From Pristiophorus japonicus (lineage: Eukaryota), in assembly GCF_044704955.1 (NCBI RefSeq), contig NC_092003.1, positions 7,812,001-7,876,000 on the forward strand: 64,000 nt of DNA, read 5' to 3'. Both the position numbers and the translations under genes were made by a program. A model generated the notes under the pieces. That model saw only the letters and a list, made by a program, of their open reading frames with translations. It searched no databases and was not told where the DNA came from. Positions 24,131 through 50,272 of the stretch are shown here, one piece after another. The stretch's first letter is position 1. Every line of letters starts with the position of its first letter.

Positions 24131-24171
24131 TGTTGTCCTGTTGTGTGTGTGTAGACCGACAGCTCCTCTAC

Positions 24172-24280
24172 CTTTTGTGCTGATCTAGTAGATCCTTGTC
24201 AGTGATCAGCACTTTGAGATCTTTCAGATCCTGCAAGAATTCTCGGTCCAGGTCTACATCCATGTCGTCCGCCATGGAAT
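24172..24280 (-). CDS. FIBP: FIBP coding exon 6 (109 nt)
   Basis: [37 protein letters not shown]. Boundaries ttacag| and |gtagag. Confidence 0.96.
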
Positions 24281-24513
24281 CTGTAAGAGACGACATTGGC
24301 ATCGGTGAGTGTCTGCTCCATCAGGGGACCACTCCACTCTGAGTCGGGGTGGGGGGGGGGGATTGGAACCGACCATCCACAAGGGGGGGGGGGGGAGGGG
24401 GTAGATCTGGGAATATTAACTTGAAAATCTGGACTGGACACGGACTTTGGTTTCCGAGGTTCATTTTCTTGGTGATCGATATAACTCAAAGTGAACATTT
24501 AAGCCCACTGCAG

Positions 24514-24610
24514 CTGTGTCATCGGGATGTGTTGGCTAATTTATTCCAAGGCACTGCGCTGACGGACGTGGAACACCGCTACAAAGCCCTGCTATTGTGT
24601 TATTTCAACG
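24514..24610 (+). pseudogene. Putative upstream exon of the same antisense gene, abutting a CR1 insertion at its donor
   Basis: ctgcag| acceptor. The only open frame is LCHRDVLANLFQGTALTDVEHRYKALLLCYFN. CR1 starts immediately after it, and GTATGT follows the CR1 tail at 26647. Confidence 0.35.
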
Positions 24611-26647
24611 TACATCCCTGTCTGGCGTAAAAATATTACAGGAAAGGTGGCTCAACCGTGGCTAACAAGGGAAATTAGGGATAGTGTTAAATCCAAGGAA
24701 GAGGCATATAAATTGGCCAGAAAAAAGCAGCAAACCTGAGGACTGGGAGAAATTTAGAATTCAGCAGAGGAGGACAAAGGGTTTAATTAGGAGGGGGAAA
24801 TAGAGTATGAGAGGAAGCTTGCCGGGAACATAAAAACTGACTGCAAAAGCTTCTATAGATATGTGAAGAGAAAAAGATAATGAAGACAAACGTAGGTCCC
24901 TTGCAGTCAGAATCAGGCGAATTTATAATGGGGAACAAAGAAACGGCGGACCAGTTAAACAAATACTTTGGTTCTGTCTTCACTAAGTAAGACACAAATA
25001 ACCTTCCGGAAATACTAGGGAACCGAGGGTCTAGTGAGAAGGAGGAACTGAAGGAAATCCTTATTAATCAGCAAACTGTGTTCGGGAAATTGATGGGATT
25101 GAAGGCTGATAAATCCCCAGGGCCTGATAGTCTGCATCCCAGAGTACTTAAGGAAGTGGCCCTAGAAATAGTGGATGCATTGGTGGTCATTTTCCAACAT
25201 ACTATAGACTCTGGATCAGTTCCTATGGACTGGAGGGTAGCTAATGTAACTCCACTTTAAAAAAAAATGAGGGAGAGAGAAAACAGGGAATTATAGACCG
25301 GTTAGCCTGACATCGGTGGTGGGGAAAATGTTGGAATCAATTATTAAAGATGTAATAGCAGCGCATTTGGAAAGCAGTGACAGGATCGGTCCAAGTCAGC
25401 ATGGAGTTATGAAAGGGAAATCATGCTTGACAAATCTTATTGAATTTTTGAGGATGTAACAAGTAGAGTGGACAAGGGAGAACCAGTGGATGTGGTGTAT
25501 TTAGATTTTCAAAAGGCTTTTGACAAGGTCCCACACAAGAGATTAGTGTGCAAAATTAAAGCACATGGTATTGGGGGTAATGTACTGATGTGGATAGAGA
25601 ACTGGTTGGCAGACAGGAAGCAAAAAGTAGGAATAAACGGGTCCTTTTCAGAATGGCAGGCAGTGACTAGTGGGGTGCCACAGGGTTCAGTGCTGGGACC
25701 CCAGCTATTTACAATATACATTAATGATTTGGATGAAGGAATTGATTGTAATGTCTCCAAGTTTGCAGATGACACTAAGCTGGGTGGCGGTGTGAGCTGT
25801 GAGGGGGATGCTAAGAGGCTGCAGGGTGACTTGGACAGGTTAGGTGAGTGGGCAAATACATGGCAGATGAAGGATAAATGTGAGGTTATCCACTTTGGTG
25901 GTAAAAACAGGAAGGCAGATTATCTGAATGGTGACAGATTAGTAAAAGGGGAGGTGCAACGAGACCTGGGTGTCATGGTACATCAGTCACTGAAAGTTGG
26001 CATGCAGGTACAGCAGGCGGTGAAGAAGGCAAATGGCATGTTGGCCTTCATAGCTAGGAGATTTGAGTATAGGAGGAGGGAGGTCTTACTACAGCTGTAC
26101 TACAGTGAGGTCACACCTTGAATATTGTGTACAGTTTTGTTCTCCTAATCTGAAGAAGGATGCTCTTGCTATTGAGGGGGTGCAGCGAAGGTTCACCAGA
26201 CTGATTCCCGGGATGGCAGGACTGACATATGAAGAACGACTGGATCGACTGGGCTTATATTCTCTGGAATTTATAAGAATGAGAGGGGATCTCATAGAAA
26301 CATATAAAATTCTGATGGGATTGGACAGGTTAGATGCAGGAAGAATGTTCCCGATGTTGGGGAAGTCCAGAACCAGGGGTCACAGTCTAAGGATAAGAGG
26401 TAAGCCATTTAGGACCGAGATGAGGAGATACTTCTTCACCCAGAGAGTGGTGAACCTGTGGAATTCTCTACCACAGAAAGTTGTTGAGGCCAGTTCGTTA
26501 GATATATTCAAAGGGGAGTTAGATGTGGCCCTTACGGCTAAAGGGATCAATGGGTACGGAGAGAAAGCAGGAATGGGGTACTGAAGTTGCATGATCAGCC
26601 ATGATCATATTGAATGGTGGTGCAGGCTCGAAGGGCCTGTTTCTATG
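24611..26647 (+). mobile_element. 5'-truncated CR1 (~2 kb) with disrupted RT domain
   Basis: [37 protein letters not shown] and KFADDTK, with stops and frameshifts. Confidence 0.95.
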
Positions 26648-26763
26648 TATGTGTTGACTTTACTCTGTATCTAACCCCCTGTACCTGCCCTGGGAGTGTT
26701 TGATGGGACAGTGTAGAGGGAGCTTTACTCTGTATCTAACCCCGTGCTGTACTTGTGCTGTAG

Positions 26764-26930
26764 ATTACCACCGTCACCTGGGCAAGCAGCACAACCTGAC
26801 CCAGCAGATGAGGAATCGAATACAAGACCTGCGGCTGATGATTGATCGGAAGGGCATCCTCGACGAGGAGGCCAAAGGTCGCTGTCACCGCATCGTCGAG
26901 TTCTTCCGCCAATTCCTGGGAGCCACTTAG
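26764..26930 (+). CDS. Putative terminal coding exon of an unidentified gene antisense within FIBP intron 5
   Basis: Unique sequence with 54 codons at ~76% GC3 and vertebrate-type codon usage. TAG acceptor with CTAAC ~25 nt upstream, ends at a TAG stop. Family not recognised. Confidence 0.55.
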
Positions 26931-26934
26931 ACCC

Positions 26935-27425
26935 CGTCCCCTCCCCTCCCCCCCCCACCCCCAGACCCCCCCCACTCCCAGACCCCCCCCACCCCCAGAC
27001 CCCTCCTCCACTCCCAGACCCCCCCTCCACTCCCAGACCCCCCCCCACCCCTCCCCCTCCCCCAGGCCCCCCCTCCACTCCCAGACCCTCCCCACCCCCA
27101 GACCCCCCCCACCCCCAGACCCCTCCTCCACTCCCAGACCCCCCCCACCCCCAGACCCCTCCTCCACTCCCAGACCCCCCCTCCACTCCCAGACCCCCCC
27201 TCCACTCCCAGACCCCCCCTCCACTCCCAGACCCCCCCTCCACTCCCAGACCCCCCCCCACCCCCAGACCTCCCCCTTCCCCAGACCCCCCCTCCACTCC
27301 CAGACCTCCCCCTCCCCCAGACCCCCCCTCCACTCCCAGACCCCCCCCACCCCCAGACCCCCCCCTCCCCCAGACCTCCCCCCCCCCCAAAACTCCCCCT
27401 CCCCCAGACCTCCCCCTCCCCCAGA
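26935..27425. repeat. C-rich minisatellite (CCCAGACCCCCCCTCCACT-like), G4-prone on the minus strand
   Basis: Directly visible. Confidence 0.85.
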
Positions 27426-27779
27426 CTGAGTCCCGCTCACCCATCGCCCCCTGTGCTCGCCTCTCTCTCATTTAAGACGCTCCTTAAAACCTACCGAGAT
27501 TCTCTAGAAATTAGGTGATCTCATTGAAACAGACACAATTCTTACAGGGCTTGACAGGGTAGATGCAGGGAGGGTGTTTTCCCCCCCCCGGGCTGGGGAG
27601 TCTAGAACCAGGGGTCACACAGTCTCAGGATAAGGGGTCGGCCATTTAGGACTGAGATGAGGAGGAATTTCTTCACTCAGAGGGGGGGTGAATCTTTCGC
27701 ATTCTCTGCCCCAGAGGGCCGTGGAGGGTTATTAGGCATACAACCCAACTGTTAAAATCCTGTGGAGTTTAAAAAATAT

Positions 27780-29005: not shown

Positions 29006-29108
29006 ATGATGAATGGCAGAGCAGGCTCGAGGGGCCAAATGGCCTACTCCTGCTCTTAATTCTTATGTTAACACACTACCGCATGAGTGGATACTGAGAA
29101 AATGTTTC

Positions 29109-29311
29109 TGTTACACTCATAATAAACGGCCAGACTGAGTACAGTGTGCAATGAGCAAGTGTGACCTTAGCTGCTTTATTAAGATTCCAGCGTGCAGGTA
29201 CCTCGTGGATGGCCTGCTTATATACTGTGCTCCCAAGGGATGCTGGGATCCCTTGGGAGGCCCTCTGGTGGTCAGGTGTGATGCCGGTTACACGGGGTTA
29301 AATACCCAACA
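29109..29311 (-). mobile_element. Solo LTR related to the Gypsy LTR at 44252, inserted in a CR1 fragment
   Basis: TGTT...AACA ends. Shared blocks GTGTGACC, CTTATATAC, GTGCTCCCAAGGGAT..TGGGATCCC and GCCCTCTGGTGG. Confidence 0.65.
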
Positions 29312-29865
29312 GTGGCCCCTTGTGGGGAAGGGCATAACTGGAGGCCATCAATCTGAGACAGTCACCCAGAAACCCAAGGGGGGAATTCAGGAGAAACTTC
29401 TTCACCCAGGGAGGGGTGAGAATGTGGAGCTCGCTGCCACAGGGAGGGCTCGAGGCTCTCCACTGTTGGTGGGTGGCGAGCTTTGCTGGGAAACGGCCGC
29501 CTTGCCTTTACGTGCCGCAACGCTGCCTCCTGGTGGCGGAGTGCAGTCGCACGGCACATTTAAGGGGAGGCTGGACAAACACATGAGGGAGAAGGGGACG
29601 GAGGGCAACGCTGACAGATTTAGGCGAGGAAAGACGAGAGGAGGCTCGAGTGGAGCATAAACGCCGGCACGGGCTGGTTGGGGCCCAATGGCCTGTTTCT
29701 GTGCCGTGTGTAATCCGACATACGCCCCAAGGGTTTGCCCATCTCCACGCTGCATTCGCGGACAGATCCCAACAGGCTGCACCCAGAATCTGACAGCGGG
29801 CAGCTCCCCGCTGACCATACCCCCACTCCCCCGGGCCGCAGACACCCCGCCCCCCCCTCGCTTAC

Positions 29866-29999
29866 CCACAGCTCCCAGCGTCCAGTTCTGAATCAGCTGT
29901 TCCGCACAGCAGGCAAAGTCCTCGAAGGTCAGGTATTGCAGCTTCTTCTTGCCGGTCTCGAACCGACTGTTGGCGAAGAACACCACGGCTGCGTAATCA
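29866..29999 (-). CDS. FIBP: FIBP coding exon 5 (134 nt)
   Basis: [44 protein letters not shown]. Boundaries ctgcag| and |gtaagc. Confidence 0.97.
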
Positions 30000-30089
30000 C
30001 TGCAGGGGGGGGGGGGGCGGGCACCGGCAGAGAGAGGGCACAAGAGAGAATTATACTGCCCGCCGGCACCTTACCAACCCCTCCCACCC

Positions 30090-44251: not shown

Positions 44252-45640
44252 TGTTATTGTTTAGCCGTGAATAAAGCGTCAGACTAGATACTGCAAGCCC
44301 CACGTAAGGTGTGACCGTAGTCCCTTTATTACAGGTCTCAGAGTGCCTCTCCAGCCTATGAGGCCTCCTTATATACAGGTGCTCCCAAGGGATTGTGGGA
44401 TCCCATGGGACTCCAGGGGAAGAGCCCTCTGGTGGTTAGACATGGTATTTACAGGTTTACATACATAACAACACTCCCCACCCCCCCCCAAAAGTCAATA
44501 GTGTAACTATTTACAACGCGAGTCGATCTGGGGCCTTCCTTTCCCTGGTTGATCATCTCGGTGCAAATGCTGGTGTTGGTGAGTCGTTTGTTGGGCCCTC
44601 GCTGGGCTGCTGCGCAGTTGGCCTTGCTGGGCTGCTGGGGGTGGAGTCCTGCTGGGCTGCTGCGGGTGATGGGTTCTGCTTCGTGGTCAACCGCTGGGTC
44701 GGTTGCCACTTGTGTGTGTGTTGGAGGGTCGAAAAAGGTAGAGTCTATTGTGGGTTGTTCTGGATAGTCCGTAAATCTGAGTTGGGTTTGGTCCAAGTGT
44801 TTCCTGCAGGTGAGCCCATTTGAGAGTTTGACCACAAACATCCTACTCCCCTCTTTGGCCAAAACAGTGCCAGGAAGCCACTTGGGGCCTCGTCCATAGT
44901 TCAACACAAATACAGGATCATTTGTTACAATTTTGCGTGACACATTTGCGCGATCATGATATGTATTCTGTTGAAGCCGCCTGCTCTCTACCTGTTCGTG
45001 TAGATCAGGGTGGAATAACGAGAGCCTTGTCTTAAGTGCCCTTTTCATGAGGAAGGAACCCCAGTGAGGGAGTGGGGTCTTGTGCGGTAACTAAGCAGGA
45101 CTCGGGATAAGCGAGTCTGCAGTGAGCCTTCAGCTACTCTTTTAAAACTCTGCTTGATTGTTTGAACTGCTCATTCTGCCTGACCGTTGGACGCTGGTTT
45201 AAACGGGGCAGACATGACATGTTTGATCCCATTGCGGGTCATGAACTCCTTGAACTCGGCACTGGTAAAGCACAGCCCATTGTCACTCACAAGGACATCA
45301 GGCAGGCCGCGCGTGGCAAACATGGCCCGTAGGCTTTAAATGGTGGCAGCGGACGTGCTTGCCGGCATTATCTCACATTCAATCCATTTGGAGTACGCAT
45401 CTACAAACACTAAGAACATTTTTCCCAAGAACGGGCCTGCATAGTCGACATGGACCCTAGACCACGGTTTGGAGGGCCAGGACCATAAACTTAGTGGCGC
45501 CTCCCTGGGTGCATTGCTTAACTGGGAACATGTATTACATTTGTGCATGTAGGACTCTAAGTCTGCATCGATACTGGGCCACCACACGTGGAATCTGGCT
45601 ATCGCTTTCATCATTACGATGCCTGGGTGGGTGCTGTGGA
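44252..45640 (-). mobile_element. Truncated Ty3/Gypsy LTR retrotransposon: integrase, PPT and 3' LTR (44252-44470)
   Basis: HHCC motif (HSTHPGI..VWWP..CNTC), PWSRVHVDYAGP, VSDNG and SNGQAE, with stops. The LTR is bounded by TGTTAT/ATAACA and preceded by a G-rich PPT. Confidence 0.9.
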
Positions 45641-46560
45641 GATCAGAGCTTGGGGCCCTGGCAGCTGAAGGCACGGCCACCGATGGTGGAGCGATTATAA
45701 TCAGGGATGTTCAAGAGGGCAGAATTGGAGGAGCGTAAATATCCCAGGGGGTTGTGGGGCTGGAGGAGATTACAGAGATAGGGAGGGGCGAGGGCCATGG
45801 AGGGATTTGTAAACAAGGATGAGAATTTTGAAATCGAGGCGTTGCTTAACCGGGAGCGAGCGCGGGGGGGTGATGGGTGAGTGGGACTTGGTGCGAGTTA
45901 GGACACGGGGCAGTGAGCACAGGGAGTGATGGGTGAGCGGGACTTGGTGTGAGTTAGGACACGGGGCAGCGAGCACAGGGGGTGATGGGTGAGCGGGACT
46001 CGGTGCGAGTTAGGACACGGAGCAGTGAGCACAGGGGGTGATGGGTGAGCGGGACTCGGTGCGAGTTAGACACAGGGGCAGCGAGCACAGGGGGTGATGG
46101 GTGAGCGGGACTCGGTGCGAGTTAGGACAAGGGGCAGCGAGCACAGGGGGTGATGGGTGAGCGGGACTCGGTGCGAGTTAGGACACTGGGGCAGTGAGCA
46201 CAGGGGTTGATGGATGAGCAGGACTCGGTGCGAGTTAGGACACGGGGCAGTGAGCACAGGGGGTGATGGGTGAACGGGACTCGGTGCGAGTTAGGACACG
46301 GGGGCAGCGAGCACAGGGGGTGATGGGTGAGCGGGACTTGGTGCGAGTTAGGACACGGGGGGCAGCTGAGTTTTGGATCACCTCTAGTTTACGTGGAGTA
46401 GAATGTGGGAGGCCGGCCAGGAGTGCGTTGGAATAGTCAAGTCTGGAGGTAACAAAGGCACGGATGAGGGCTTCAGCAGCGGATGAGCTGAGGCAGGGGG
46501 CGGAGACGGGCGAGGTTACGGAGGTGGAAATAGGCGGGTTTAGTTATGCTGCGGATATGT
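45641..46560 (-). mobile_element. L2 3' fragment with ~9 x 56 bp expansion; its tail lies at 44180-44251
   Basis: Same L2 peptide and repeat unit as 39385-40095. Confidence 0.8.
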
Positions 46561-49621: not shown

Positions 49622-50272
49622 ATGAGCACGGGAGACCTCTCGCTCTCTGGGACGACGGGCGCAGCAGACGGTGAGACGCTGCCGCCGGACCTGGGCCGGG
49701 TGGCCCAGGAGGAGCTGCTGAGCTGGGGCAAAGTGCAGCTGGTGCAGCAGCTCCGCCGCGCCGAGGCGGACAAGGTGGCGGCGCTGGTGCAGCGGGGCCG
49801 GCTGATCCAGGAGGTGAACCGGCAGCTTGAGGGCCACCTGCTGGAGGTGCGCCAACTCAAGGCCGCCAACCAGCGCCTGCGGGACGAGAACCAGGAGCTG
49901 CGGCACCTCTGCTGCTTCCTGGACGAGGAGCGGCTGAAGGCGCGGCGCCTGGCCCGCCAGTGGCAGGGCTTCGGGCGCCACGCTGCGCGGGTGATGCGGG
50001 AGGACGTGGGCGGCTACCTGCGCAAGCTGGCCGAGCTGGAGCAGCTGCAGGGGGCCCTGGCCCAGGACAACCGGGACCTGCAGGAGCTGTGCCTCCTGGC
50101 GCTGGACGCGGCCGCCCAGGGGAACCCCGGCCAGGGCCCCGGCGCCAGCCCGGCCGGCTCGTCCGACCTCAACCTCCCCTGCGGGCCCCGGGACCTGGGC
50201 GACGGCAGCTCCAGCGCCGGCAGCGTGGGCAGCCCCGACCCACTGCAGCTGGCCTGCTCACCCGAGGATTAG
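49622..50272 (+). CDS. CCDC85B: Coiled-coil domain-containing protein 85B (DIPA), single coding exon, 216 aa
   Basis: ALVQRGRLIQEVNRQLEGHLLEVRQLK, ENQELRHLCCFLDEER and C-terminal CGPRDLGDGSSSAGSVGSPD..LACSPED match CCDC85B. Head-to-head with FIBP as in mammals. Confidence 0.95.
   Translation: MSTGDLSLSGTTGAADGETLPPDLGRVAQEELLSWGKVQLVQQLRRAEADKVAALVQRGRLIQEVNRQLEGHLLEVRQLKAANQRLRDENQELRHLCCFLDEERLKARRLARQWQGFGRHAARVMREDVGGYLRKLAELEQLQGALAQDNRDLQELCLLALDAAAQGNPGQGPGASPAGSSDLNLPCGPRDLGDGSSSAGSVGSPDPLQLACSPED

Follow-up and report, generated by a model that had tools for sequence, protein, structure and literature searches.

A probable terminal exon of a shark CatSper-zeta gene, antisense within intron 5 of FIBP in Pristiophorus japonicus

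CatSper-zeta, the product of CATSPERZ (TEX40), is presented in two papers as restricted to mammals and as a proposed late mammalian addition that helps sperm to navigate the female tract (PMC5362262, PMC8147001). In mouse, the protein is a cytosolic subunit, and its binding to the EF-hand protein EFCAB9 depends on Ca2+ and on pH (10.1101/459487). It binds by way of a C-terminal IQ-like motif (L174-Q175) described for therian mammals (PMC8147001), and it assembles with EFCAB9 and ARMH2 into a ternary complex (PMC12638846). Most CatSper subunits are reported to be retained in cartilaginous fishes (PMC7533707). According to the methods of Zhao et al. 2025 (PMC12638846), an HMM search recovered non-mammalian zeta sequences that BLAST had missed; like the shark gene described here, these lie outside mammals, and an ARMH2-EFCAB9-zeta complex is predicted for them. 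The source table of Fig. 3 in the same paper has Efcab9 and Armh2 entries for three cartilaginous fishes and lists zeta for none of Callorhinchus, Rhincodon and Amblyraja; since its eta and tau cells are empty too, the table is of low sensitivity in this respect. In human, TEX40 lies directly downstream of the potassium channel gene KCNK4 on the same strand, and a KCNK4-TEX40 readthrough is recorded at 11q13.1 (PMC5793191).

The DNA analyzed here, referred to as the window, is a stretch of 64,000 nucleotides of the Pristiophorus japonicus genome (contig NC_092003.1, positions 7,812,001 to 7,876,000; C29 in the chromosomal coordinates below). A Pfam FIBP search of the whole genome gave eight exon matches in order, two of which, FIBP exon 6 (about 24162-24284, on the 3' side of intron 5) and FIBP exon 5 (29866-30001, on the 5' side), both on the minus strand, flank a plus-strand exon at 26764-26930; the proposal of an earlier note, made from the sequence alone, that FIBP intron 5 holds an antisense coding exon was thus borne out. 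The exon, which by homology and by its frame fit with exons on another contig is assigned as the last coding exon of a CatSper-zeta-like gene, begins in phase 1 and is open for 54 codons, 41 of them with G or C at the third position, between a TAG acceptor (26761-26763) and a TAG stop; its phase-0 reading meets a stop after 11 codons. All of these features had been listed in the earlier note and were seen again. The exon is single-copy, being the sole match in a search of the 5.9-Gb assembly, and a non-repeat island (26761-26928) coincides with it almost exactly.

The flanks of the exon are repetitive. On the upstream side, a short array of an intronic satellite with a unit of ~68 bp (26649-26755) separates it from a LINE, and supplies the CTAAC branch-point-like motif at 26736 in the 3' splice region (26736-26763, plus strand); use of the acceptor as a splice site is predicted from these motifs. 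On the downstream side, a C-rich satellite of the CCCCAGA type (26931-27426) directly follows the stop codon in place of a unique 3' UTR. The sole plus-strand AATAAA of the intron beyond the exon is found at 29121, in a stretch (29071-29330) that by inspection is probably solo-LTR-like.

In sequencing runs X4-X6, the piece 24172-24281 of FIBP exon 6 is contained in contigs of 1.1-1.4 kb that resemble spliced RNA, and 24417-24604 and 26767-26935 are uncovered, a blank that is neutral as evidence. An open stretch bounded by CAG and GTGAGT on the plus strand (24229-24306), antisense over FIBP exon 6, probably occurs by chance. Elsewhere in the window, a single-exon CCDC85B gene (49622-50272, plus strand) encodes 216 amino acids with 70% identity to horn shark CCDC85B, and ORF fragments at 44411-45710 resemble, by inspection, an LTR-retroelement integrase. 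A tandem array of ~58 kb, with about 1550 copies of a 37-base unit (C29:7879101-7936937), starts 3 kb to the right of the window.

When the exon peptide was compared with 1.84 billion proteins using HMMER, two matches under E = 0.001 were obtained. The best of these is XP_067877797.1, an uncharacterized protein of 210 amino acids from the horn shark Heterodontus francisci (68% identity over residues 157-209, E = 8.9 × 10−15), so that the exon is conserved in a second shark; the second match is to a trichohyalin-like protein of repetitive sequence. A word-index homologue search with the exon returned no match, and was insensitive, because it missed the horn shark protein too; when started from the horn shark protein, the search returned, among 58 candidates, only that protein itself. 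Compared with the PDB on its own, the exon matched ribosomal proteins only (E ≥ 0.49). A cytokine (IL-5/IL-10-like) reading was dropped once the horn shark homologue had been found. The helical character that the earlier note had attributed to the exon peptide was judged right.

A search of the P. japonicus genome with the horn shark protein gave four matches at E ≤ 10, with upstream exons on the minus strand of an unplaced 86-kb contig (C299); the fourth match is weak and contains stops. By inspection, the C299 exons were placed at 14739-14714 (carrying the ATG), 12726-12654, 5949-5858, 1814-1761 and 452-386 (last exon on the contig, with a phase-1 donor), all on the minus strand, together with a putative 7-nt microexon at 10269-10263 that has a strong T-rich acceptor and a GTGAGC donor and is needed for the N-terminal frame. 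All introns of this model are GT-AG, and the last donor is in phase 1, as exon 26764-26930 requires. Joined to that exon, the C299 exons yield seven coding exons and 161 codons with no stop, colinear with residues 54-208 of the horn shark protein; the first ~50 residues of the latter have no counterpart in the model. Identity to the horn shark protein over the four C-terminal exons is 58, 61 and 77% for those on C299 and about 69% (68% by HMMER) for the exon inside FIBP. The true phase-1 upstream exon lies on C299.

Through the horn shark homologue, the gene, which the earlier note could not assign to any family, was assigned to CatSper-zeta. Among PDB matches to the horn shark protein, only two fall under E = 0.001, both of them chains of mouse CatSper-zeta (E = 1.6 × 10−4 and 1.7 × 10−4), and three further matches, at E between 0.27 and 5.5, are to unrelated proteins. 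For a profile of the horn shark protein and the P. japonicus exons, both of two matches are zeta (E = 1.5 × 10−5), with nothing else at E ≤ 1, and for the 22-residue penultimate exon alone, zeta is the sole match at E ≤ 10 (E = 1.8). Residues 128-180 of the horn shark protein align to residues 131-183 of mouse zeta (chains 7eeb_K/9lwo and 9ubw_K/9ubx), and the sequences have in common an LPLPL segment followed by two helices over ~52 residues. Both the 161-residue model and mouse zeta (194 residues) are small, with a poorly conserved N-terminus. Neither the model nor the 210-residue homologue shows a long hydrophobic run by inspection, and the homologue has no Pfam match, consistent with a small, soluble-type protein that, like zeta, lacks a known domain. 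The shark model differs from mouse zeta in about 19 additional C-terminal residues, which may form a third helix (a low-confidence prediction), in the assembled position of its last exon inside FIBP intron 5, and in having seven modelled coding exons as opposed to the five exons, over ~3 kb, given in PMC5362262.

The genomic context on C299 points in the same direction. A gene for a two-pore potassium channel of the TREK/TRAAK group ends 3.3 kb upstream of the zeta-like exons, on the same strand. One of its exons matches KCNK2 best (90.8 bits), followed by KCNK4 (87.3) and KCNK10 (78.1). Two further close paralogues are present in the genome; they reach 103-107 bits with KCNK2 and 98-101 with KCNK10, compared with no more than 70.6 with KCNK4 (below the cut-off in one case). 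The C299 channel is the most KCNK4-like of the three and is taken, by exclusion, to be KCNK4, an assignment drawn from one exon and three TREK/TRAAK paralogues. The shark zeta-like gene would thus follow KCNK4 directly, on the same strand, just as TEX40 does in human. The sequence match and the KCNK4 synteny are independent and agree, and therefore support the CatSper-zeta identity; in our judgement, exon 26764-26930 is very probably the terminal exon of a shark CatSper-zeta orthologue. On the other side of the channel gene, upstream of it, a GC3-rich last exon with a hydrophobic tail and a stop was noted at C299:83733-83851 (minus strand), with no Pfam match.

In the alignment with mouse zeta, positions L174 and Q175, which are needed for EFCAB9 binding, fall in exon 26764-26930 and read M-R in both sharks. 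The alignment of the IQ-like helix is gap-free and retains a hydrophobic residue (M), whereas the glutamine is replaced by arginine, such that the literal therian motif is absent. ARMH2 is present in the P. japonicus genome, with matches that contain no stops. By analogy with mouse, the exon would encode the C-terminal helices that dock zeta on the calcium sensor EFCAB9, and shark zeta would be a small, cytosolic, sperm-specific protein in a zeta-EFCAB9-ARMH2 module under the CatSper pore, coupling pH and Ca2+ to channel opening; what it binds, where it is expressed and where in shark sperm it resides are predicted by the same analogy.

With regard to the position of the exon relative to C299, the reading that we place first, and hold weakly, at short of an even chance, is that of an intact, interleaved gene in which the exon is spliced across an intron of more than 50 kb. 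C299 and C29 are physically unlinked in the data examined: no overlap was found between C299 and either the 234 kb of C29 that surround the window or 200 kb around BAD, and C299 breaks off inside the last intron, 385 bases from its start, in a G-rich satellite that occurs once. An intact gene would put C299 in the scaffold gap 24 kb to the left of the window, with EFEMP2 and FIBP exons 6-10 contained, on the opposite strand, in the last intron. The nearest gap (C29:7788185-7788384, 200 N, 50.4 kb to the left of the exon) splits a fibulin gene that, from its position to the left of FIBP, we take to be EFEMP2, and whose 3' exons apparently lie on a 12.8-kb contig (C3112). To the left of the gap is a gene that we likewise assume to be MUS81-like, without 3' exons on C29; neither MUS81 3' exons nor TRMT112 were found in searches of the genome. 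MUS81 and EFEMP2, which here flank the gap, are direct neighbours in human, a point against the intact reading.

The exon itself is intact, is conserved like the other exons of the gene and has single-copy depth: in run X1, possibly the source sample, the depth of the contig that carries it is 6.8, compared with 6.56 for the contig with FIBP exon 6, and it carries no listed variant letters. On the other hand, an intact gene calls for more rearrangement than a simple copied exon, and BAD, next to KCNK4 in human, lies on C29 at a distance of 4.5 Mb. In the horn shark, the zeta-like protein and CCDC85B, the neighbour of FIBP in P. japonicus, are encoded on contigs of equal length (27,526,183 bases), which speaks for the main reading; adjacency of the two genes is not suggested, because their accessions are 153 apart, accession order being a rough guide.

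A possible, if doubtful, alternative keeps the CatSper-zeta identity and regards the exon inside FIBP as a displaced copy, produced by segmental duplication or by a move, with the working last exon unassembled just past the end of C299, or the gene broken. That C299 stops so soon after entering the last intron, within a satellite, fits this alternative, as does the fragmentation of the region, seen in the EFEMP2-like and MUS81 3' exons; moreover, a single event would be enough, whereas the intact gene requires KCNK4 and zeta to lie between MUS81 and EFEMP2 with an exon far downstream. However, a displaced copy does not readily account for an intact exon that is no more distant from the horn shark protein than the C299 exons are, or for the agreement in X1 depth and the lack of listed variant letters, and no target-site duplication that would mark a transduction block of the adjacent LINE was found.

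It is unlikely, in our estimate, that the placement is an assembly artefact, in which case C299 would belong beside the exon, separated from it by a collapse or misjoin at the LINE or at a satellite, and the zeta gene would be compact as in mammals. Read depth is low (about 6.5), the 86-kb contig was left unplaced, and the LINE is not bridged by X1 contigs, one of which covers 24135-24657 without a break and another of which begins at 26728. Nevertheless, FIBP exons 1-9 surround the exon on a single contig and follow one another in order, and therefore two misjoins or a nested block would be needed; furthermore, the identity of the LINE to its best matches in a sample of 31-47 copies stays at 92-96% throughout, without an abrupt change (a weak test).

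That the shark gene has no relation to CatSper-zeta, encoding instead some small helical protein that matches the PDB entries by chance, appears highly improbable. Such a reading can point to the lack of any Pfam match for either candidate exon or the horn shark protein; to the missing IQ-like glutamine; to the single-sequence AlphaFold2 model, with a pLDDT of 41.7 too poor for a fold search, for which Foldseek gave no match at E ≤ 0.001; and to the ESM Atlas scores, the best of which, 0.89 and 0.82, are under 0.9 and serve as leads only. The similarity to mouse zeta is likewise limited to ~52 residues, with modest E-values. Chance would nonetheless have to yield both PDB matches to zeta only and a same-strand position next to KCNK4 that is known from human.

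The plus-strand piece at 24514-24609, which the earlier note took for the exon preceding 26764, is most likely ordinary intron DNA and is rejected here as part of the gene. The CAG in front of it and its single open frame are present as described, but its status as an exon did not stand: given that 32 open codons follow 1601 of the 3969 YAG sites in the window (40%) and that its GC3 is only 19/32, the piece is no better than chance. It has no BLASTP alignment to the horn shark protein at E ≤ 100, and 1946 of 2000 shuffles score equally well against that protein.

The adjoining element (24610-26648, plus strand) is, by comparison of copies, a 5'-truncated and frameshifted LINE of the CR1 type, a label that we assume, following the earlier note, and it is viewed as a bystander intronic insertion. 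It contains a truncated reverse-transcriptase ORF, has a 3' tail of short tandem repeats and is present in high copy number; the genome contains its first 26 bases, counted from 24610, 8547 times. Its start lies at G24610, and not at 24611 as previously given, since GTACATCC is element sequence that is preceded by AATT or AACT in all 25 other copies examined. At the other end, its tail repeat TTTCTATG(T) spans G26647 and T26648. Consequently, the G and the GT that are both required to restore the phase-1 donor AAC G/GTATGT upon removal of the element match the element itself, and removal would more simply leave a phase-0 GT or no GT. No joint corresponding to an empty CR1 site was found among the read joints listed, and recent disruption of the gene by a CR1 insertion at a splice donor is unsupported. 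The model in which 24514-24610 and 26764-26930 are consecutive exons of a nested gene recently broken in this way, for which it can be said that both pieces are open, that they join in frame if both junction G's are host DNA and that the T-to-final-D spacing equals, by eye only, that of the homologue, is largely refuted and hardly credible, in that a C299 exon matches the same segment of the horn shark protein at 77% and in the right phase.

Our literature searches, two of them loose, found no paper on shark zeta or on KCNK4 synteny outside mammals, and PMC13674862 contains no relevant passage. In the passages of Zhao et al. 2025 (PMC12638846) that were consulted, no synteny argument is made; a shark zeta may already be among the sequences of Supplementary Fig. 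2b. Given the HMM search described in that paper, the statement that zeta is not confined to mammals is no longer new, which lessens the surprise. The shark gene would be a new member of a known family, a CatSper-zeta that synteny supports and whose IQ-like motif has changed.

The stranded last exon would represent a rare interleaved architecture, a recent displacement of an exon or an assembly fault. Tentatively, and with more doubt than belief, we propose a working shark CatSper-zeta at the ancestral KCNK4 locus, with a zeta-EFCAB9-ARMH2 sensor of pH and Ca2+ that is older than mammals and whose binding dispenses with the IQ glutamine, and with the exon for the binding helix, inside FIBP, still spliced across an intron of >50 kb that spans EFEMP2 and half of FIBP. 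The natural variant in which L-Q is replaced by M-R offers a test of what EFCAB9 recognises. A shark orthologue that has the support of sequence as well as of KCNK4 synteny would date the gene, together with its linkage to KCNK4, to the ancestor of jawed vertebrates.
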